From Escherichia phage OLB35, in the sequence record MH992122.1: a stretch of 64,000 nt of DNA. One strand, written 5' to 3'. The notes beneath the pieces were generated by a model. The model was not told the origin of the DNA and searched no databases. It saw only the letters and a list, made by a program, of their open reading frames with translations. The translations under genes were made by a program, and so were the position numbers. Positions 1,196 through 62,266 of the stretch are shown in pieces; position 1 is the first letter of the stretch, and every line of letters begins with the position of its first letter.

Positions 1196-2008
1196 ATGAT
1201 CAAAGAACAACTTTTGAAAGAAGCTCAGAATATCGAGACTTCAGTTGCTCTTAATAGTGTTTTCGAATCAGTAGAACTGTCTCCGGACGTTAAAGCTAAT
1301 TTCAGCACTGTATTCGAAGCCACCGTTAAGCAGGAAGCAGTCAAACTAGCTGAATCTCATATCAAAGCTATCGCCGAAAAAGCCGAAGAAGAAGTTGAAA
1401 AGGCTAAAGAAGATGCTGAAGAGAAAGCTGATAAAAAATTGGCTGAACAAGCTTCTAAATTCCTGGACCATCTTGCAAAAGAATGGCTCGCAGAAAACCA
1501 AATCGCAGTTGATAAAGGCATTAAAGCTGATTTGTTCGAATCCATGCTTGGTGGTCTGAAAGAACTGTTTGTTGAACATAACGTTGTTGTTCCAGAAGAA
1601 TCTGTAGATGTTGTAGCAGAAATGGAAGAAGAGCTGGCCGAACATAAAGAAGAAACCGCTCGTTTGTTCGAAGAAGTTACCAAACGTGATGCATATATCA
1701 ATTACGTTCAGCGTGAAACCGCTATTAATGAAAGCGTAAAAGACCTGACTGAATCTCAGAAAGAAAAAGTTATTGGCCTGGTTGAAGGTATGGATTATTC
1801 TGACGCATTTGGTACTAAGTTAACTGCTATTGTAGAAATGGTTAAAGGTTCTACTAAAGAAGAAGCCGCTATTACCGAAAGTATAAATACAGTTGACAAT
1901 GACGCTGCCGGTCTTAATTTTGTTGCCGAAGCAGTTGACACTACCACAACTCAGGTAGAACAGAATTCTAATGTAAGTTTATATGCGAAAGTCGCATCTC
2001 GTTTCTAA
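1196..2008 (+). CDS. 22: prohead scaffold protein gp22
   Basis: 270 aa acidic coiled-coil-like protein immediately upstream of the major capsid gene; late promoter TATAAATA 30 nt upstream. Confidence 0.85.
   Translation: MIKEQLLKEAQNIETSVALNSVFESVELSPDVKANFSTVFEATVKQEAVKLAESHIKAIAEKAEEEVEKAKEDAEEKADKKLAEQASKFLDHLAKEWLAENQIAVDKGIKADLFESMLGGLKELFVEHNVVVPEESVDVVAEMEEELAEHKEETARLFEEVTKRDAYINYVQRETAINESVKDLTESQKEKVIGLVEGMDYSDAFGTKLTAIVEMVKGSTKEEAAITESINTVDNDAAGLNFVAEAVDTTTTQVEQNSNVSLYAKVASRF
1882..1889 (+). promoter_or_regulatory. late promoter TATAAATA for gene 23, inside the 3' end of gene 22
   Basis: Exact TATAAATA about 135 nt upstream of the gene 23 ATG, as known for T4 P23. Confidence 0.65.
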
Positions 2009-6339: not shown

Positions 6340-6458
6340 AAATCACCATTATAAATAATAATATCAAAATAATTAGCAGAGACTCTATCTCCGACCCGAT
6401 GTTTAATTTGAATGGATAGAACCTAGATTCATTATACCATCAAAAAATGTAAAGCATA

Positions 6459-25606: not shown

Positions 25607-25680
25607 TTTATTCTCCAGATGTTTAAGTTGTTTGTTAGTACAGGTCTATAATAACATAACCTGTACCAAAGTAAACTGTT

Positions 25681-27329: not shown

Positions 27330-27386
27330 CTTATTTCCTTGTTGTTTGACGATAGATTAATAATACCATACTATTCGTAAAGCATA

Positions 27387-31738: not shown

Positions 31739-31766
31739 TTAGATTTCCTCAATTATCCATAGGAGC

Positions 31767-31796
31767 ATTATACTCTGCTCCCGAGAGTTTGTAAAC
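31767..31796 (-). promoter_or_regulatory. T4-type early promoter with palindrome across the -10 element
   Basis: Reverse strand GTTTACA, 18 nt, TATAAT lying in the loop of GGAGCA..TGCTCC. Confidence 0.5.
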
Positions 31797-32020
31797 TATT
31801 TTACTAAAGATTCGATATACTCATGAAGAGCTTTAGTCGCTACTGCCCACTTGTTCTGATATTCATTTTTCAGATTAGCACGAGACTGAACTAACAAGCG
31901 GTCATTAGTCGGAGGCAAAGATTCTAATCGTTGAATCTGGCGCCCATAAATCATAGCCGCCATTTCAGATTCATAGATAAGCCCTTTAATGTATTCATGC
32001 TGTTCTTTAGTCATTGGCAT
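31796..32020 (-). CDS. hypothetical protein
   Basis: 74 aa ORF. Confidence 0.45.
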   Translation of the reverse strand: MPMTKEQHEYIKGLIYESEMAAMIYGRQIQRLESLPPTNDRLLVQSRANLKNEYQNKWAVATKALHEYIESLVK

Positions 32021-44489: not shown

Positions 44490-45407
44490 TCAGAATTCGT
44501 TAATTACACTTGTTAATTTAGAAAGACCAGATTTTACAAAGTATGAATAAATCTTGCCTTTAGGTTGTGGTTGATATGAGTTATAATACTCTATAATGGT
44601 TGAAGCAATATTATCAGGAATATAATCAAAATCAATTAGAACTAAATTTTCCTGATACCGTTTATATTCTTCTGCACTTAATAATACTTCAGCTTGAGAA
44701 CGGTCATTGGCAATTGCTTCAATAATCGTTGTTTTCATGCTTGGAGTTCGTTCGCCTTCAACTCGAGTAAACCAGAAGTCACCACGAACTCGAACAGACG
44801 CAACACCATCTTTACGGTCGCCTTTAAGAATTTTAGTCATGCAATCAATTTCAGCAGAACCATTCTTAATTTTAACCCATTTTTTCTGCGGTGGCGACCA
44901 CTGTTTAACGTTAGGGTACTTGTGTAATTGTGTAAAGTCACCATCTGATGCAACAATACACACCTTATGACCAGCTAATGACAAATATTTAGTTAATACA
45001 CCGATATGGTCATCCGCTTCGTATTTGTCAATATCCATTACAACGTATGGCATATATTTCTTAATCTCATCAACAACTTGATGAAGTGCAGTAAAATATC
45101 CTTCCCAATCCCACTTTGAAGCTTCACGATCGGTTTTACGATTTTTCTTATAATAGTAAGCAAAGTCACGACGCCAATATCCAGAAGTAGCGTTATCCAT
45201 GCACAATACAAATTTTGTATAACCTTGCTTACGGAACATCACTACGTTTTTACGAATTGAATTCAAGACTACATGGCGAACCATCGGAACAGTAATTTTA
45301 TCACCGTCTTCAAAGTTGTTTAATGCAGCTGCCAATGCAATGTTACTAAAGTCGGCAAGTGCAATACCTTCTTTGTAATCTTCATTCAACATCATTTCTA
45401 AATCCAT
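44490..45407 (-). CDS. rnh: RNase H (5'-3' exonuclease)
   Basis: 305 aa as T4 Rnh; position upstream of dsbA. Confidence 0.9.
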   Translation of the reverse strand: MDLEMMLNEDYKEGIALADFSNIALAAALNNFEDGDKITVPMVRHVVLNSIRKNVVMFRKQGYTKFVLCMDNATSGYWRRDFAYYYKKNRKTDREASKWDWEGYFTALHQVVDEIKKYMPYVVMDIDKYEADDHIGVLTKYLSLAGHKVCIVASDGDFTQLHKYPNVKQWSPPQKKWVKIKNGSAEIDCMTKILKGDRKDGVASVRVRGDFWFTRVEGERTPSMKTTIIEAIANDRSQAEVLLSAEEYKRYQENLVLIDFDYIPDNIASTIIEYYNSYQPQPKGKIYSYFVKSGLSKLTSVINEF

Positions 45408-45527: not shown

Positions 45528-48500
45528 ATGGTTGACATCAAACGTAAGTTCAGGGCCGAAGATGGTCTTGACGCAGGCGGTGATAAGATAGTTAACGTTG
45601 CGCTTGCTGACCGCACAGTTGGCACCGATGGCGTGAACGTTGACTTTTTGGTGCAAGAAAACACCGTACAGAATTATGACGATACGCGCGCGTATACAAA
45701 AGATTTTATTGTTCTTTATGATAATCGTTTTTATCAAGCTTTAAACGATATTCCAGCTCCGGCAGGCCCTTTCTCTTTGGCTAAATGGAAGGCAACTCGT
45801 ACAGATGCAGAATGGATTACAGTTCAAGGCGGAGATTTCCAATTATCAGTAGGTAACTCTATCGCGGTTGATACTTCAGCTGGCACTGATATTAATTTCA
45901 CTTTGCCTCAAAATCCTTTAGATGGCGATACAGTTATTTTGTCTGATATTGGCGGTAGAGTAGGCTATGTAAAAGTTCAAATTACTGCAGCGGCTCAAAG
46001 TATTGTAAACTTTAGAGGACAACAGGTTCGTTCAGTTTTAATGACGCACCCAAAATCTAAAATGGTCTTCATTTTTAGCAACCGCCTATGGCAAATGTAT
46101 GTTTCTGATTACGAACGTAATGCAGTCACAGTAACTCCTGCTAAGCCATATCAGGCGCAACCTAATGATTTTATCATTCGACGTTTTACATCAGCCGCTC
46201 CTATTAATATTACATTGCCTCGTAATGCTAATAATGGCGATATTATTAATTTAGTTGATTTAGACAAATTAAACCCATTATATCACACAATTGTCAAAAC
46301 TTACGATGATACAACTTCTATACGAGAAGCTGGTGTTCATGTAGCAGAAGGACGTAATACTGCGGAAGCATTCTTTGTTTATGATTCTGCTAATAGCTTA
46401 TGGCGTGTTTGGGAAGGTGACCAGAAATCTCGTTTACGTATAGTTCGTAATGATACTGATTTACGCCCTAATGAAGAAGTTCTTGTTTTTGGAACTAATA
46501 ATGATACAATCTCGACGGTAAATCTTACTTTGCCTACAGATATTTTGTCTGGTGATACTGTTAAAATATCGTTGAATTATATGCGTAAAGGGCAAACTGT
46601 AAAAATTAAAGCTGCTGAAGGCGATACAATTGCTAGCAGTATTTCTTTATTACAGTTCCCAAAACGTTCAGAGTATCCACCTGATGCACAATGGGTTTCT
46701 GTTAGTGAGCTGGAATTTAATGGCGATACTTCGTATGTACCTGTACTTGAGTTAGCTTATATAGAAGATTATTCATCTGAAACAAAATATTGGGTAGTTC
46801 AACAAAACACTGTAACCGTCGAACGAGTCGATGCATCGAGCAATACAACTCGAGCTCGTTTAGGTGTTATTGCTCTTGCTTCTCAAGCGCAAGCAAATGT
46901 CGATTTAGAAAATGCTCCTGGTAAAGAACTGGCTATTACTCCGGAAACATTAGCAAATCGTACAGCAACTGAAACTCGTCGTGGTATTGCTCGTATTGCA
47001 ACAACTGCACAAGTTAACCAGAATACCGATTTTGCATTCCAAGACGACTTGATTATTTCTCCTAAGAAATTGAACGAACGTACAGCAACTGAAACCCGTA
47101 GAGGTGTTGCTGAAGTTGCAACTCAGGCTGAAACTAATGCTGGCACAGATGATACCACTATTATTACTCCTAAGAAATTGGATGCCCGTCAAGGTTCTGA
47201 AGTTTTATCTGGTATTGTAAAATACACATCTACGACTGGTACTACAGCGGCTACTGTTCGTGGTAATGCTGGGACTAACGTTTATAACAAAGCCGTAGAT
47301 AATTTAACTATTTCTCCAAAGGCTCTTGACCAGTATAAAGCTACCCCTACTCAACAGGGCGCAGTAATTCTTGCTATTGAAAGTGAAGTTATCGCTGGTG
47401 AATCACAAGCCGGTTGGGCTAATGCTGTAGTGACCCCTGAAACACTACATAAGAAAACTTCTACTGATGGACGTATTGGTTTAATTGAAATTGCTACGCA
47501 AGCAGAAACTAACACTGGAACTGATTATACTAGAGCAGTAACGCCTAAGACGTTAAATGATAGGAAAGCTACGGAAGGATTATCCGGCATAGCCGAAATT
47601 GCTACGCAAGTTGAATTTGATACTGGAACTGACGATACTCGTATCTCGTCTCCACTGAAAATTAAAACTCATTTTGATTCTTCTGACCGTACCAGTGTTA
47701 ATTCTGATTCCGGACTTATTGAAGAAGGAACCTTGTGGAACCATTATACTCTTGATATTTCTAAAGCAAATGAAACACAACGTGGTACACTTCGCGTAGC
47801 GACTCAGGCAGAATCTAATGCCGGAACTTTAGATGATGTTCTTATTACTCCTAAAAAACTTTTAGGGACTAAGTCCACTGAAACGTCTGAAGGTGTGATT
47901 AAGGTTGCTACTCAAGATGAAACTGTAACGGGAACTTCCACTAATACCGCTGTATCACCTAAGAATTTAAAATGGATTGTCCAGGATGAACCAACATGGG
48001 CTGCTACTACGGCAATTCGTGGATTCGTTAAAACTTCATCCGGTTCTATTACATTCGTTGGTGACGATACTCAAGGTAGTACCCAGGATCTGAATCTTTA
48101 CGAGAAAAATAGTTATGCTATTTCTCCATATGAATTAAACCGTGTACTTGCTAACTATTTGCCATTGAAAGCTAAAGCCGTAGATAGTAATCTGTTAGAT
48201 GGTCTAGATTCTCTCCAGTTCATCCGTAGAGACATCGACCAGACGGTTAATGGTTCTTTAAGTCTTACTAAACAGACCAACCTGAGTGCTCCTTTAGTAT
48301 CTACAAGCACTGCTTCTTTTGGATCTGAAGCATCTGTTACTCGTAGATTAACTCTTAATGACTCTAGCGGTTCCGAAATAGTTTTCACTAAAGGAACCCA
48401 ATCTCTTAGTAATAAAGAGAATTTCGTTGTTAGAGCATGGGGTAATAGCGCTACAGATGGTGCCCGTGATACAGTATTTGAAGCTGGTGACGAAACCGGA

Positions 48501-56839: not shown

Positions 56840-57058
56840 TCATGTTTTGCTACAAGATTGTTCATAATGATTTATAACCTCATTTAAACATTTATCGGTA
56901 AAAGAAAACTTTTTAGCCACAGAACATTCGATAATGTGCTCTTTCAAATCTTTAGAGTCAGTATAACCCATCTCAGTAATAAAGTGGCGAATTAAAGCTT
57001 TATTCTTATCATTAACAGAATTAAAATAATCTGCTTTAGAATCAATTATTCTCATCAT
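56840..57058 (-). CDS. hypothetical protein
   Basis: 72 aa ORF in the asiA to motA block. Confidence 0.4.
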   Translation of the reverse strand: MMRIIDSKADYFNSVNDKNKALIRHFITEMGYTDSKDLKEHIIECSVAKKFSFTDKCLNEVINHYEQSCSKT

Positions 57059-57323
57059 CTAATTTCCTTAATTGATATTGCAACGAGCTAATAATTTCTT
57101 CGTTCATTTTAATATACATGTCACGCAAGAAAGGTTTTAACCCATCACGAATAATTGCTAACGTATCACCTTTACATAAATTAACCAAATAAGGATGATC
57201 TAAAGCGTCCCAACCAGGCTGATTAGCATACATGCCATAGTTTTCTTCCATCATATGATTAAGACGTTTGATATCTTGGATACGTGATTCAATAGCATCT
57301 TTCTGGAGTTGTTTAATATTCAT
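57042..57323 (-). CDS. hypothetical protein
   Basis: 93 aa ORF. Confidence 0.4.
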   Translation of the reverse strand: MNIKQLQKDAIESRIQDIKRLNHMMEENYGMYANQPGWDALDHPYLVNLCKGDTLAIIRDGLKPFLRDMYIKMNEEIISSLQYQLRKLDDENN

Positions 57324-57784
57324 TAATAAAGGTCCTCTGAATAAAGTTCTTTCTCACTTCCACCACGTTCAATACGTACCTGTCCAGCATACGTTGCAAT
57401 AATCATTGCTTCTTCACGCGTCCAGTAATTAGAGTATTGGTCAATAAAGCCTTGGTCGTCACCACAAACTTGTTGCGAGACTAATTGAGGACCAACTATA
57501 TCAAGTACTTCAGCCATATCTTTAGAGTAATGATGAACTCCAGGAATAACCAGAGTTCCACCGCTCTTCAATTTAAACCTATTAGCTGCACATACTATAA
57601 CACGTTGAACTTTTTGGTCATTGTTCCAATAGCACGTTTGCCAACAGATTTCAGGAACTTCATTCATTATATCATCAGCAGAATAATTATAACCGTAGGA
57701 CTGGAATTTTTCTGCTAGACTTTCAGGAGTCTCACGAGACAAGGCTAAATCTAATAGCTCTAAGCGTTCTTTAAATGATTTCAT
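57323..57784 (-). CDS. hypothetical protein
   Basis: 153 aa ORF; conserved-looking blocks ([17 protein letters not shown]) but no family assigned. Confidence 0.45.
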
Positions 57785-58110
57785 TTAAACCATTCCTTAA
57801 TACGTTGCCAAATAGATTTTTGTGCTTGTTTATTTACACCAATCGAACGAATAACCGGTTGTGACTGCTGATATTCTTTATAATCTTCTTTATAGATTTC
57901 GTAAGCTGCATCAACAAATGAACTGATCGCTGCCATGTAGTTTTTACGAAGGCCAAATGGCGCGTCATTATTTTCACGAATAACCGTATATTGGCCTGCT
58001 TTAATCTTTACAATTGTCCCTAAATAAGCTCCATGGTACCAAATATCCCATCCTTCCTGAGTAGGTTCTGCACATTTACGAAGTTCGTTAATAATATTCA
58101 GCTTATTCAT
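57781..58110 (-). CDS. hypothetical protein (motA.1-like by position)
   Basis: 109 aa ORF downstream of motA. Confidence 0.45.
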
Positions 58111-58120
58111 TATGTATTCC

Positions 58121-58753
58121 TCACAGTACGTTAGTTACAAGGGTAATGATTTCTTTGGACACATTAGGGAAGTCAATGTAAGTATATTTACCACCGATTT
58201 TAATCTTAACATCATTTTCAAGAGAAGTAAACAGCTTTGATTCAGTTTCTGACATGTTGTATGCAAAGATTCTAAGAGCGCCATCTCGTCGAATTTCAAT
58301 TTGGCGAATGCCTAGAACTCGTTTAGCGAATCGAACTTCTAAGTTACTACGGTTTTCACCAATTTCTTTAACTTCAACTTTATCTTTAATATTTTCAAAA
58401 ACAAAGTTTGCTAGTTCATGCATTTCAGGAGTAACTCCACGTGCTTTTCTGGTGTTACGTTTCTGAAGAAGTTCTGGAGCATTTTCTTGAGCAAATAGGT
58501 CTGCAGCTTTTTGGATAATATCCATTGCTTCGCCTGTTGCTACAAGTCCATCACCGGATTTTTCGACTAAACCTTTCTTAATCAATACACCAATGTTAGA
58601 GTTAACAACTGATGCATTGTATTCCGCTTCCAGAGCTTCACGGACATTGGCAGCAGTGGTGAAGTTGTTCTTAATGATATAAACCATTATTGCAGCGGTT
58701 TTTTCATTCAGAGCGTTTTCAGAAGCTTTGATGATGTAAGTAACTTTAGACAT
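58121..58753 (-). CDS. motA: middle transcription activator MotA
   Basis: 211 aa from internal start MSKVTYIIKAS..; strong identity to remembered T4 MotA; early promoter directly upstream. Confidence 0.9.
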   Translation of the reverse strand: MSKVTYIIKASENALNEKTAAIMVYIIKNNFTTAANVREALEAEYNASVVNSNIGVLIKKGLVEKSGDGLVATGEAMDIIQKAADLFAQENAPELLQKRNTRKARGVTPEMHELANFVFENIKDKVEVKEIGENRSNLEVRFAKRVLGIRQIEIRRDGALRIFAYNMSETESKLFTSLENDVKIKIGGKYTYIDFPNVSKEIITLVTNVL

Positions 58754-58820
58754 TTTATTTCTCCAATTTAGTATTTGTTTTGATAGGTCTATAATATCAT
58801 GTTTGAAGCACATGTAAACT
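58745..58820 (-). repeat. direct repeat copy 1: promoter + 5' UTR + first three codons cassette
   Basis: About 76 bp near-identical to 59064..59141. Confidence 0.7.
58790..58819 (-). promoter_or_regulatory. early promoter for motA (copy 1 of duplicated cassette), with embedded TGCTTCA MotA-box-like motif
   Basis: Reverse strand GTTTACA tgTGCTTCAaacatgat ATTATA; 37 nt upstream of motA ATG. Confidence 0.55.
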
Positions 58821-58827
58821 TTATTTT

Positions 58828-58847
58828 GGGCTCTTTTTCAAAAGCCC
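58828..58847 (-). terminator. hairpin GGGCU..AGCCC after the 71 aa ORF
   Basis: 5 bp stem with 10 nt loop, A/T-rich flanks, precedes the motA promoter. Confidence 0.45.
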
Positions 58848-58856
58848 TGGTAAAAT

Positions 58857-59072
58857 TTACAAACTCATTTCTTTAATAAGGCTAATAAGTTTTGCCTTTT
58901 TAGAACGAAGCTTTTCTAAATGATGTCCATTTGAACCGCGAACCACTAAAGAATTGATTTCAACTTCTAAGAAATTTAATTCTTCAACAAGTGCTTTACG
59001 GAGAGCATTCATACCAGGTTTAACTTTACCGAAACGAGTAGTTGTGTTTTGGGTTAATTTCATTTTAGACAT
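58857..59072 (-). CDS. hypothetical protein flanked by duplicated promoter cassettes
   Basis: 71 aa basic ORF; shares its first three codons (MSK), 5' UTR and promoter with motA. Confidence 0.5.
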   Translation of the reverse strand: MSKMKLTQNTTTRFGKVKPGMNALRKALVEELNFLEVEINSLVVRGSNGHHLEKLRSKKAKLISLIKEMSL

Positions 59073-59141
59073 TTTATTTCTCCAATTTGGTTGTTTTGTT
59101 TTGATAGGTCTATAATATCATGTTTGAAGCACATGTAAACT
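59064..59141 (-). repeat. direct repeat copy 2: promoter + 5' UTR + first three codons cassette
   Basis: Differs from copy 1 by a ~5 nt insertion and two substitutions. Confidence 0.7.
59111..59140 (-). promoter_or_regulatory. early promoter (copy 2 of duplicated cassette) for the 71 aa ORF
   Basis: Identical -35 / spacer / -10 to copy 1. Confidence 0.55.
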
Positions 59142-59167
59142 GTTTTGTGAGAAAAAAATGCACAAAA

Positions 59168-59181
59168 GGGAGCCGGCTCCC
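59168..59181 (-). terminator. palindrome GGGAGCCGGCTCCC after gene 52
   Basis: Perfect 14 nt palindrome with T-run on the transcribed strand, precedes promoter copy 2. Confidence 0.55.
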
Positions 59182-59257
59182 TAATCATGTTTGTCTAACC
59201 AATACAGCCAAATCACTAGTGCAGCTATTGCACCGAGAAATCCTAAGGCTAGGGCAC

Positions 59258-60583
59258 TCAAAGTGCCTCCAAGTCTTTAGTGTACTCTGTCACAACATCA
59301 GTAGACTTCCAATACTCATTTTCTTCTTTCTTAGCTTTAGCTTCTTCTGCCAGTTTACGTGCTTCGTCAGAAGTGATATGGAAGATGTTAAGACCTACCA
59401 GTTTATCGACATGTTCTTTATACATTTCGATTTGTGCTAGCTCTTCAGTCAAAGCTTTACGAGTCTTGCCTTGAATCACAATTTCGCCACTGATAACTTT
59501 TTTGATGAAGTGTGCCTTAGCAAAAGCCAGTTTAAATGCTTTTTCAGATTCAAGGATTTTGTTGTCAATACGTTTCTGAACGTAAGTCTTACGGACTTCA
59601 ACAAAATCTTTGATTAAGTCCACTACGTTATCGTAGACCGCTAATTTACCCTTTTCATTAATCACTGTGATGTTTTGTGAACGACGTTCGATGAGACTAA
59701 AATCTTTCATGATTTTTTCATGACGTAGCTCTTCGTCATCTGGAAGCGAGTACTCTTTACGGAACTTCACCTTAAACCCAAAGCCGTGTTCACCACAATC
59801 ATCTTCCCATGAGATTAGACCTTTGTCTTCCAACGGGTCAAGAACCTTACTCACATACGTTTCACGGTCGAATTTATATGGGATTTCAGTTATCTGCATT
59901 TGAGTACGAGATGTGAACTTGTACGTTCCGTGAATCTCATAACGCCCATCAACTTCATGCACTTCACCACGGAATTCTGGAAATTCAACTTTTGGCTTAG
60001 TGACATTTTTACCTTGAAGAGCTTGTAATACAGCCTTTTTGACCGATTTAAAACTATGAGGCAGAATATTTGTTGCGTAACCGGTTGCAATACCAGAGAC
60101 ACCGTTCAAAAGAACTGTCGGAATAATAGGAAGATAGAATTTTGGTGGAAGGTGTTCTTTATCTTCATGTGCTGGAGCATATTCAGTATCTTTATATACG
60201 TTATAGAAATTTTTGCTTACACGAGCAAAAATATAACGAGATGCTGCAGCTTTTTGGACTGTTCTAGAACCAAAGTTGCCTTGGCCGTCTAACAGTGGAT
60301 AGTTGTTATTCCACGTATTAGCCATCAATGCACCTGCATCTTGTGCAGAAGATTCGCCATGATGATAACCTAAATCTGCAACACCTCCTGCAATTGACGC
60401 AAGTTTATGAAATTTTTCTTTATTACCACGAGCCAAATCTAATGCCCGATGAACAACAAAACGTTGAACCGGCTTAAATCCATCAATCATGTTTGGGATT
60501 GCACGGTTTTCAACGGTGTACATCGCATATACTAAGGCTTCGTTATCAATAATACTTTTTAGATTACGAGAATTCAATTGCAT
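59258..60583 (-). CDS. 52: DNA topoisomerase II medium subunit gp52
   Basis: 441 aa; long identity to remembered T4 gp52 (MQLN.R.LKSIIDNEAL.YAMYTVENRAIPNMIDGFKPVQRFV). Confidence 0.95.
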   Translation of the reverse strand: MQLNSRNLKSIIDNEALVYAMYTVENRAIPNMIDGFKPVQRFVVHRALDLARGNKEKFHKLASIAGGVADLGYHHGESSAQDAGALMANTWNNNYPLLDGQGNFGSRTVQKAAASRYIFARVSKNFYNVYKDTEYAPAHEDKEHLPPKFYLPIIPTVLLNGVSGIATGYATNILPHSFKSVKKAVLQALQGKNVTKPKVEFPEFRGEVHEVDGRYEIHGTYKFTSRTQMQITEIPYKFDRETYVSKVLDPLEDKGLISWEDDCGEHGFGFKVKFRKEYSLPDDEELRHEKIMKDFSLIERRSQNITVINEKGKLAVYDNVVDLIKDFVEVRKTYVQKRIDNKILESEKAFKLAFAKAHFIKKVISGEIVIQGKTRKALTEELAQIEMYKEHVDKLVGLNIFHITSDEARKLAEEAKAKKEENEYWKSTDVVTEYTKDLEAL

Positions 60584-60587
60584 ATTT

Positions 60588-60728
60588 TCACCATATTAAT
60601 GAATGAATATCCATTATAACATCTGAAATGAAAAGCACTACTTGGATTAGTCCAAACATCACACCGTAGTACAGAACCGTAAGCAACAACAAGAGCCCTA
60701 AGGCTCCTGCTAAGATTTTCTTAATCAT
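60588..60728 (-). CDS. small hydrophobic membrane peptide, 46 aa (MIKKILAGALGLLLLLTVLYYGVMFG...)
   Basis: Below track threshold; hand-translated; stop 5 nt before gene 52 ATG; T4 has ac/52.1 small genes here. Confidence 0.45.
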   Translation of the reverse strand: MIKKILAGALGLLLLLTVLYYGVMFGLIQVVLFISDVIMDIHSLIW

Positions 60729-60874
60729 TACTCGCCTTTTAATACGTTAAAAAGAGCTAAGACCGCTAAGGTGCCTTGTGATACGGCCTGTTGAAATACT
60801 GTTGTTTCGCCTGTAACTAAAGTACTAACGAATAAAAACGACCAACACAGTAATGCAATAATCCATGTTACCAT
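60728..60874 (-). CDS. small hydrophobic membrane peptide, 48 aa (MVTWIIALLCWSFLFVSTLVTG...)
   Basis: Below track threshold; hand-translated; stop overlaps ATG of the next small ORF (TAATGA). Confidence 0.45.
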   Translation of the reverse strand: MVTWIIALLCWSFLFVSTLVTGETTVFQQAVSQGTLAVLALFNVLKGE

Positions 60875-60925
60875 TTTATTACCTCACAAATAAATTAAAG
60901 GTCTAACTTAATAGGCCCGTATAAA

Positions 60926-61372
60926 TTAGTAACTCTGCAGAATGAATTTGAAATTATCTGCCAGAAGACGGTTCATTTCAGTGAGTGTTTGATATTCTGA
61001 TGTATGATTGCGAGTGAATGCCAGAGCCAATTGTCCTTTACCATAACCAGTAGTCAGTGGTTTCATGTTCTTAGCTGCAACAAAGATTACGTCATATTCA
61101 ATATTGTTAGTGCCCATGGTACGGGCTAGTTGCGAACGGCCTTGACGAATGTGAGAAAGAATTGCATCCAACCCTTGTTTAGAACGTTGACGTCCTACAA
61201 AAAATCGTGCTGCTACTTGTCGCCAATCAGATGAACCTTTAACAAAGAAGTAAAAACCTTCACGAGAACGAAACTCTTTAGAAACTTCGGAACCGTATTC
61301 GCCATTACGAACTACTGCAACAACTTCACCGCCAACTGCCAGAAGGTCTTTACGAGTTAAATATTTAGACAT
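60926..61372 (-). CDS. ndd: nucleoid disruption protein Ndd
   Basis: 148 aa; blocks RFxVGxQRSKQG, SHIRQxRSQLART, [22 protein letters not shown], EMNRxLADNFKF match remembered T4 Ndd. Confidence 0.85.
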
Positions 61373-61416
61373 GCTAATTTCCTCAATTGATTAATGTTTT
61401 TGTAATCCATGAGAGC

Positions 61417-61446
61417 ATTATACTCTGCTCTCAAGAGTTTGTACAA
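61417..61446 (-). promoter_or_regulatory. early promoter for ndd with palindrome across the -10 element
   Basis: Reverse strand GTTTGTACAA-type -35 variant, 18 nt, TATAAT within AGAGCA..TGCTCT palindrome; close copy of the 31767 promoter. Confidence 0.45.
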
Positions 61447-61448
61447 TT

Positions 61449-61649
61449 TTATTCGGCCATATCAGAACGTTCAAAAAGCTCTTCAACGGTTAAACATTCG
61501 GTGTCATCCTCAATAAAGAATCGGGTCCAACACGTTGGGGCGATGCAGTTATGAGTTTGTCCGGCTATAGAAGCTACACGAATAAGCTGCTGGCCATTAT
61601 TCAGGACAAATTTTTCACCAATTTCAACATCTTTAAAAAGCTTAGCCAT
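61449..61649 (-). CDS. hypothetical protein
   Basis: 66 aa ORF with early promoter upstream. Confidence 0.45.
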   Translation of the reverse strand: MAKLFKDVEIGEKFVLNNGQQLIRVASIAGQTHNCIAPTCWTRFFIEDDTECLTVEELFERSDMAE

Positions 61650-61666
61650 TTTGTGTTCCTCATGTT

Positions 61667-61729
61667 TTGATAAGACTACTATATCATAGTCCTATTTAGT
61701 TGTAAACACTTTTTATGGAATTAAAGATG
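61667..61729 (-). repeat. direct repeat copy A of an early promoter region
   Basis: 63 bp, about 95 percent identical to 62179..62241. Confidence 0.65.
61678..61707 (-). promoter_or_regulatory. T4-type early promoter (repeat copy A)
   Basis: Reverse strand GTTTACA, 18 nt, TATAGT. Confidence 0.5.
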
Positions 61730-61899
61730 TTAAAGCCAACCATGTTCCAGTGAACGAACATGCAATGTAAAAACCAGTATCACAAATTGTTCTTAGTACA
61801 ATAAGAAGTGCATTTTTCATAAGTACCTCAATGCAATTGAAAATATTATACAAATCATAGGGATACTAAGCAACCATATTCCAATCCACATTTTAGAGC

Positions 61900-62163
61900 T
61901 CATATCTCAACTTCCGCGAGTTCCATATATCCTTTGTTGATAACCTCTTTAAGGTCTTTAGAAAGAATAACACCAAAATGGTCATTCATATGTCCATTAA
62001 CTAAACGAGTTATTTCGGCTTCGGATGACATATAAGGCACGTCTGAGTCCCAATGAGATAGACCTAAATGAGTATAAATCATCCCTTCGTCATCTGCAGT
62101 GTTGTACATTGAAACAAACTCACCAGTCACTTTATGTTTTGCGTAGAAAAATTTAAATTTCAT
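61900..62163 (-). CDS. hypothetical protein
   Basis: 87 aa ORF with near-identical copy of the same early promoter. Confidence 0.45.
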   Translation of the reverse strand: MKFKFFYAKHKVTGEFVSMYNTADDEGMIYTHLGLSHWDSDVPYMSSEAEITRLVNGHMNDHFGVILSKDLKEVINKGYMELAEVEI

Positions 62164-62178
62164 GATGTTATCCTCTTT

Positions 62179-62241
62179 TAGATAGGACTACTATATCATA
62201 GTCCTACTTAGTTGTAAACACTTTTTATGGAATTAAAGATG
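62179..62241 (-). repeat. direct repeat copy B of an early promoter region
   Basis: 63 bp, about 95 percent identical to 61667..61729. Confidence 0.65.
62190..62219 (-). promoter_or_regulatory. T4-type early promoter (repeat copy B)
   Basis: Near-identical to copy A. Confidence 0.5.
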
Positions 62242-62266
62242 AAGATACCAACCGTTGTAGTTGCTC

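Follow-up and report, generated by a model that had tools for sequence, protein, structure and literature searches.

The junction between gene 52 and motA in Escherichia phage OLB35 carries two near-identical promoter-leader modules, copies A and B, that bracket a 71-residue open reading frame (ORF), orf71. The locus was analyzed within a window of 64,000 nucleotides, the whole stretch of record MH992122.1 under study, together with its counterparts in related phages. The two modules very probably form a cassette pair of the promoter-early stem-loop (PeSL) type, in which early-promoter modules would drive orf71 and motA, and comparison with relatives shows that recombination has deleted, homogenized and swapped the unit. 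The process has already been described, and this locus is a further, well-documented instance of it rather than a new mechanism. The 98-99% identity to CCU7, PECP20 and Shf125875 over positions 58000-59400 places the phage in Mosigvirus (RB69 group), which specifies the T4-type genomes of the first-pass annotation as this genus and not as T4 itself.

Two promoter-leader copies precede orf71 and motA

The ORF list assigns gene 52, orf71 and motA to the minus strand, and the order of transcription is gene 52, a 26-residue ORF, a hairpin, copy A, orf71, a GAAA hairpin, copy B, motA and a homologue of arn.4. Gene 52 is thus the upstream neighbor, with its transcripts directed at the cassette, and motA sits downstream. 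The repeat search paired 58774-58828 with 59095-59149 (55 nt, 95% identity) and 58745-58781 with 59064-59100 (37 nt, 86%), the two segments being offset by a 2-nt indel. Gapped realignment of copy A with copy B gave 79 identical columns out of 86, including exact runs of 46 and 25 nt, and both analyses confirmed the direct repeats that the first-pass annotation had placed from 58745 and 59064. The repeat period is 319-321 bp. The window contains exactly two occurrences of the promoter-core 34-mer GTTTACATGTGCTTCAAACATGATATTATAGACC, compared with none expected from 100 shuffles.

Each copy consists of GTTTAC, a 17-nt spacer including TGCTTCA, TGn followed by TATTAT, CCTATCAAAAC, GGAG, 7 nt and the codons ATG TCT AAA, with CACAAAACA and CAAAATAAA as A/T-rich stretches ahead of GTTTAC. 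Both copies are predicted T4-type early promoters of the form GTTTAC-17-TGnTATTAT, and their sequence matches the consensus TTTACW-N17-TAYWAT of T4/PST-type PeSL promoters (PMC4122927). The early promoter had been recognized previously with ATTATA as its -10; the better assignment is TATTAT, preceded by the TG of an extended -10 and set off from the -35 by a 17-nt spacer. The generic promoter and terminator scan, which assigned the palindromic terminator to the non-coding strand, was used for hexamer positions only. In Mosigvirus the repeat reaches through the Shine-Dalgarno sequence (SD) and three codons, so that orf71 begins with MSK as motA does, while the Dhakavirus orthologue begins with MNK. 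The A-type spacer contains a short inverted repeat, CATGT...ACATG, a candidate PeSL-style internal stem-loop that is absent from the B-type and Dhakavirus copies. No RNA family was found by an Rfam search of 57000-61000 at E ≤ 1.

A hairpin stands ahead of each copy, as had been described, and the two are of different kinds. The upstream one, 59168-59181, reads GGGAGCCGGCTCCC followed by the T-run TTTTGTGCATTTTTTT, and this U-run after the stem makes it terminator-like. Its sequence varies among relatives: CCU7 and SHSML-52-1 have GGGAGC-TTCG-GCTCCC with a C(UUCG)G loop, of which the window lacks two loop T's; the loop is inverted (CGAA) in RB69 and PhAPEC2, and the stem is longer by one pair in moskry and ESCO47. 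The second hairpin (58828-58847) has no U-tract and is therefore not a canonical intrinsic terminator, which corrects the earlier reading. Folded with its extension, it reaches -15.3 kcal/mol (z = -3.35) in the sense orientation versus -9.8 in the antisense one. It shows compensatory and wobble variation across genera, with pair 2 being A-U in JS98, G.U in VR5 and G-C in the window, and pair 6 changing from C-G to U.G. This hairpin is probably an attenuator or a 3' stabilizer.

orf71 has diverged together with its neighbors

A tblastn search recovered homologues of orf71 from 93 phage records. Of these, 76 are Mosigvirus records with at least 87% identity, and the other 17, at 72-77%, belong to Dhakavirus apart from one Tequatrovirus. 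The protein matches phrog_6200, a family of no known function, over residues 1-71 of 71 (E = 1.1e-39). Compared with JS98, orf71 shows 73% nucleotide identity and a ratio of nonsynonymous to synonymous substitution (dN/dS) of 0.21; the corresponding values for its flanks are 74% and 0.23 for motA, 78% identity for arn.4 and 73-75% for the 3' end of gene 52. This low ratio and an identity like that of the neighbors point to purifying selection and to co-divergence with the adjacent genes, and indicate that orf71 is a real gene.

Regarding its product, Pfam gave no match, a word-indexed sequence search returned 8 clusters, none of them informative, and a profile search of 1.8 billion representatives yielded the protein's own family and two spurious matches (an RTX protein and a chemoreceptor). 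The AlphaFold2 model (predicted local distance difference test, 76) comprises a disordered, conserved basic N-terminus and a generic helical hairpin, for which Foldseek found no counterpart in the PDB at E ≤ 0.001.

orf71 has been lost recurrently in Mosigvirus

Alignment of the motA-gene 52 interval across related phages, the check suggested by the first-pass annotation, revealed a presence/absence polymorphism. About 155 records match 58000-59400 at 90% identity or more; 76 encode orf71 and about 79 do not, and both states occur among relatives that are 95-99% identical. Records without orf71, RB69 being one such phage, align in two pieces with a span about 319 bp shorter, which corresponds to one repeat period. 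An exact-pattern scan of IMG/VR for motA starts gave 5 loci only, and the comparison was therefore built on isolate genomes.

Genomes without orf71 retain a single promoter-leader, a chimera of A and B, that links the gene 52 terminator directly to motA. The junction in O157tp3, 308Ecol101PP, ESCO47 and two IMG/VR contigs joins the A flank, A spacer and A untranslated region (UTR) to the motA codons, with a crossover in the 25-nt SD-ATG run. In RB69 the A flank is followed by the B UTR, which locates the crossover within the promoter core, and mar005P1, moskry and AV113 combine the A flank with a B-type spacer (TTTTGCTTC) and the A UTR. These junction types require at least two, and probably three, independent events.

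Neighbor-joining trees of motA and of the end of gene 52 showed genomes with and without the ORF interspersed, the outgroup JS98 being ORF-bearing. Since the divergence of orf71 from its Dhakavirus orthologue matches that of motA, arn.4 and gene 52, presence would be the ancestral state and absence the derived one. As judged from these comparisons, orf71 is ancestral to the Mosigvirus lineage and has been lost recurrently, not newly inserted. The insertion initially proposed is disfavored by the identity to Dhakavirus (73% versus 74-78% for the flanks) and the dN/dS (0.21 versus 0.23). A broader claim, that the ORF is gained or lost through the repeats, stood for loss, with about half of the close relatives lacking exactly one ~319-bp period and bearing chimeric leaders, and held for gain only in other lineages (Manna, Sf21). 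orf71, which RB69 and roughly half of the Mosigviruses do without, is therefore dispensable and is predicted to be an accessory early protein.

Evidence of gene conversion between the two copies

Within a genome the two copies are more than similar: in each of the window, JS98 and VR5, A and B have the same 41-nt promoter core. Between lineages the core differs, and the changes (ATG versus TTC versus TTA, TGCTTC versus TGCTTT, TATTAT versus TACTAT) sit in both copies. Most Mosigviruses with the ORF have ATGTGCTTC as the A spacer and TTTTGCTTC as the B spacer, whereas both copies of the window have ATGTGCTTC. Over 481 nt the window differs from its nearest relatives, CCU7 and SHSML-52-1, by 4 substitutions, and 3 of the 4 lie in copy B, all to the A state. 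A database search with this 481-nt segment returned no identical record, the best reaching 98.5%. These patterns indicate that gene conversion holds the two copies alike within each genome.

Exchange across genera at the gene 52-motA gap

Whole cassettes have also been exchanged between genera at this gap. Salmonella phage Manna is T4-like and matches T4 at 96-97% in the flanks, but its orf71 matches that of JS98 at 95.4%, for flanks that share only 65-71% between Manna and JS98. The left junction in Manna falls in the T4 motA 5' UTR just ahead of the SD, and the right one inside promoter B. Within Dhakavirus, JS10 and JS98 are 97-98% identical in the flanks, yet JS10 carries a 75-residue ORF, orf75, unrelated to orf71, where JS98 carries orf71. 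The orf75 of JS10 and that of the Tequatrovirus Sf21 share 99.1% nucleotide identity versus 64-80% in their flanks, and orf75 was found in 168 records. It sits in the 52-motA gap of JS10, Sf21 and about 130 Tequatrovirus records. In Sf21, the JS10 copy-A flank takes the place of the GAAA hairpin's 3' arm, as if the cassette had come via a circular, permuted intermediate. A Dhakavirus-like metagenome contig (L026) has 52, orf75, orf71 and motA in tandem, with the hairpin-promoter module repeated. The gap therefore shows at least four occupancy states (none, orf71, orf75, both). Every copy of orf71 inspected lies between gene 52 and motA, with no sign of movement to other loci.

A tentative reading, to which we give less than even credence, is that Mosigvirus, Dhakavirus and Tequatrovirus share the gap as a dedicated landing pad, where alternative immediate-early ORFan cassettes are exchanged with the motA promoter-leader and the conserved GAAA hairpin as portable recombination linkers. 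If so, an incoming gene would automatically gain MotA-like, RegB-limited immediate-early expression. The occupancy states and the cross-genus identities are the observed part of this reading; the link to function is speculation, in which the two ORFs might supply alternative accessory factors for the early-to-middle switch or for countering host defenses.

Alternative explanations

The opposite direction of change, favored by the first-pass annotation, would have the 52-motA gap of this lineage start out without an ORF and receive orf71 only recently, as a cassette-borne insertion. T4 and RB69 do lack orf71, and the mechanism exists, since insertion of an orf71 cassette did happen in a Tequatrovirus (Manna). 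However, a recent import is expected to be far closer to its relatives than the flanks are, as in Manna (95% versus 65-71%), whereas Mosigvirus orf71 and its Dhakavirus orthologue differ as much as the flanking genes do; the outgroup Dhakaviruses have orf71 at the same place, and the genomes without it have the chimeric A/B promoter-leaders that deletions predict. Recent insertion is thus improbable. Still harder to sustain is the idea that selection on the exact promoter-leader alone keeps the copies alike and that the ORF polymorphism is a single old deletion spread by recombination in the flanks, with no cassette behavior: a very improbable account, even though both copies must stay strong early promoters with a good SD, and free recombination in T4-type phages could spread one deletion allele across backgrounds and produce interspersed trees. 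The other early promoters of the window vary widely in spacer and UTR, so function does not require identity, and the lineage-specific changes common to both copies in three lineages look neutral. Moreover, the window-specific changes of copy B all go to the A state, the RB69 and O157tp3 types make at least two junction classes, and whole cassettes are common across genera at 95-99% identity versus 64-80% in the flanks. Several points nevertheless weigh against a recombining PeSL-type pair as we describe it. The numbers of records with and without orf71 contain near-duplicate isolates and RefSeq/GenBank pairs, and the flank trees are shallow and without support values. The B-type spacer of three single-copy phages could be an ordinary polymorphism rather than a mosaic, in which case only two junction classes are secure, and the identity of A and B could stem partly from selection on the promoter sequence rather than from conversion. 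Promoter activity is deduced from the consensus only, a generic sigma70 promoter scan gave no excess of sites over shuffles, and the leader matches only 9 of the 11 positions of the extended RegB consensus.

A further proposal concerns TGCTTCA in the spacer, which had been taken as a hint of motA autoregulation and which, as a functional MotA site, would place motA (and orf71) under MotA itself. The motif fits the MotA-box core TGCTT(t/c)A, stands in both copies, and takes the form TGCTTTA in Dhakavirus and related contigs; among the approximately 17 GTTTAC-type early promoters of the window, only copies A and B have TGCTT in the spacer, and MotA tolerates deviant boxes (PMC2988021). A functional box, however, takes the place of the -35 at a distance of 12±1 bp from the -10 (PMC2988021), whereas TGCTTCA ends 7 bp ahead of TATTAT and the consensus -35 GTTTAC, a strong element that middle promoters lack, is present in both copies; by this geometry the promoter is early, not middle. 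The phage's own canonical sites keep the 11-13 bp spacing, TGCTTYA-N11-13-TAnnnT having 8 matches in the window versus 1.9 expected, all on the minus strand. The heptamer is mutated to CGCTTCA in O157tp3 and to CGCGTCA in ESCO47, and is absent in the forward orientation from the T4 motA promoter. It occurs 56 times in the 64-kb window, and its presence in A and B counts as one evolutionary event, not two independent ones. A functional MotA box was rejected on spacing and conservation, and we regard autoregulation through this motif as unlikely. The sites with canonical MotA geometry (e.g., 6431-6456, 27360-27384, 44583-44607 and 47743-47768) are candidate middle promoters.

Proposed expression and recombination of the unit

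RegB cleaves the T4 motA mRNA in its GGAG SD, with GGAGRAYARAA as the consensus of strong sites (PMC2988021, PMC3014915). Both leaders of the cassette contain GGAGAAATAAA, which agrees with 9 of these 11 positions, and RegB may reasonably be inferred to control orf71 and motA alike. As both leaders have a GGAG and A-rich, RegB-type sequence, orf71 would share the brief, immediate-early expression of MotA.

Combining the sequence with what is known of T4, we propose that host sigma70 RNA polymerase would initiate at both copies immediately after infection, while the upstream terminator would stop gene 52 transcripts. RNA begun at copy A would cross orf71 and then probably run on into motA, because the GAAA hairpin has no U-tract. 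As genome comparison shows, crossovers between the repeats remove orf71, the hairpin and one promoter, leaving motA intact behind a chimeric promoter-leader, and gene conversion homogenizes the two copies within each genome. The promoter-leader and hairpin modules serve as linkers for the swapping of whole ORF cassettes, with orf71 or orf75, among Mosigvirus, Dhakavirus and Tequatrovirus at the 52-motA locus.

A single 320-bp unit with the signatures of recurrent deletion, gene conversion and cross-genus transfer offers a clean natural example of how small early genes of T4-type phages are gained, lost and swapped through their regulatory modules, and marks the 52-motA gap as a small hot spot of exchange beside an essential regulator. 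The dispensability of orf71 is useful for annotating and engineering RB69-like therapeutic phages, for which the 52-motA site tolerates insertions and would offer ready-made early expression signals.

Comparison with known systems

PeSL cassettes flank ORFans and mediate their deletion, insertion and replacement (Arbiol et al. 2010, PMC2839356; Comeau et al. 2014, PMC4122927). The PeSL anatomy invoked in the first-pass annotation is borne out, since hairpin, A-rich stretch, early promoter, SD and start codon are all combined here. Like PeSL elements, the repeated copies bracket a small ORFan that varies between close relatives (76 records with and about 79 without orf71; the orf75/orf71 swap between JS10 and JS98), and deletion leaves one chimeric element (O157tp3, RB69, mar005P1 and others). 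In sequenced mini-circles, PeSL crossovers fall between the -10, the SD and the ATG (PMC2839356); those deduced here fall in the same interval. The present unit differs in standing directly before the essential regulator motA and not in a large hyperplastic region, the repeat duplicating the promoter, leader and first three codons of motA itself. Its stem-loops also lie upstream of the -35 and are unlike each other (a terminator with a U-run versus a GAAA hairpin without one), and it provides explicit evidence of gene conversion and cross-genus exchange at a single locus.

The T4 motA early promoter and its RegB-sensitive leader (Uzan et al. 1990; Sanson & Uzan 1993, as cited in PMC2988021 and PMC3014915) present the same features: motA follows a terminator, an early promoter of the GTTTAC type and a GGAG SD with an A-rich stretch behind it, and the genes run in the order 52, small ORF, motA, arn.4. 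T4, however, has a single copy with another spacer (AACCAAAGCATACTGTGG) and no orf71, whereas the leader is duplicated here, which would put a second gene under the same control.

As in a MotA-dependent middle promoter (sigma appropriation), the core TGCTTCA stands upstream of a TAnnnT -10 with TGn; the 7-bp distance and the consensus -35 set the two apart. The morons of lambdoid phages (Hendrix et al. 2000), reportedly inserted by illegitimate recombination and often oppositely oriented, are likewise single accessory genes that bring their own promoter and terminator and that some relatives have and others lack. The unit described here differs from them in that its regulatory sequences are substrates of homologous recombination and its gene is co-oriented with the neighbors.

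Neighboring genes and other repeats in the window

The coordinates of the features are collected in Table 1. The 26-residue ORF occupies the place of T4 motA.1 (49 residues); its 81-nt coding sequence is annotated in HX01 and in only some relatives, and a PHROG search with it gave no match. JS98-type phages have a different small membrane ORF at this position.

Table 1. Features of the gene 52-motA junction (window coordinates unless another sequence is named)
Feature	Position	Strand	Basis or remarks
gene 52, topoisomerase II medium subunit	59258..60583	minus	441-aa ORF; Pfam DNA_topoisoIV, E = 1e-77; gp52 label in Shf125875 and RB69
26-aa hydrophobic ORF, LSALALGFLGAIAALVIWLYWLDKHD*	59181..59261	minus	translation; TTG start overlaps gene 52 stop; GGAGG just upstream
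Terminator-like hairpin closing the gene 52 transcription unit	59152..59181	minus	sequence and fold; annotated terminator here in PhAPEC2
Copy A, putative orf71 promoter-leader	59064..59149	minus	86 nt
Copy A, -35 GTTTAC	59135-59140	minus	
Copy A, TGCTTCA	59125-59131	minus	
Copy A, TGn	59118-59120	minus	
Copy A, -10 TATTAT	59112-59117	minus	
Copy A, GGAG SD	59080-59083	minus	
Copy A, ATG TCT AAA	59064-59072	minus	
orf71, predicted 71-aa accessory early gene	58857..59072	minus	ORF; phrog_6200
GAAA stem-loop, GGGCUUUU-GAAA-AAGAGCCC	58828..58847	minus	8 bp, GNRA loop; between orf71 stop and copy B
Copy B, putative motA promoter-leader	58745..58828	minus	84 nt
Copy B, -35	58814-58819	minus	
Copy B, TGCTTCA	58804-58810	minus	
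Copy B, TGn	58797-58799	minus	
Copy B, -10	58791-58796	minus	
Copy B, GGAG	58761-58764	minus	
Copy B, ATG TCT AAA	58745-58753	minus	
motA, middle-transcription activator	58121..58753	minus	Pfam MotA_activ, E = 2e-39, and MotCF; phrog_1345, E = 5e-90
orf75, contig L026	2667-2894		unrelated to orf71
orf75, JS10 (L028)	1301-1528		unrelated to orf71
orf75, Sf21 (L027)	1301-1528		unrelated to orf71

Elsewhere in the window, a second pair of early-promoter modules lies on the minus strand at 61665-61741 and 62177-62253 (77 nt, 90% identical, 512 bp apart). It brackets an 87-residue ORF (61900-62163) upstream of a 66-residue ORF, with an AGGACTA...TAGTCCT inverted repeat spanning the -10. This ndd-proximal pair probably represents a further PeSL-type cassette. 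Short inverted repeats bracket or overlap the -10 of minus-strand GTTTAC-type promoters near 25675, 29671, 31795, 19324 and 34384, for example GTACAGGT...ACCTGTAC at 25675, and resemble the PeSL subclasses whose stem-loop overlaps the promoter. A 46-nt promoter-like segment is repeated at 31755-31800 and 61405-61450, with 85% identity over a distance of 29.6 kb. Finally, 46932-47966 contains diverged in-frame direct repeats, a 63-nt unit present five times at 60-73% identity together with 42- and 69-nt families, which probably encode a repeated peptide motif in a structural (fiber-like) gene.

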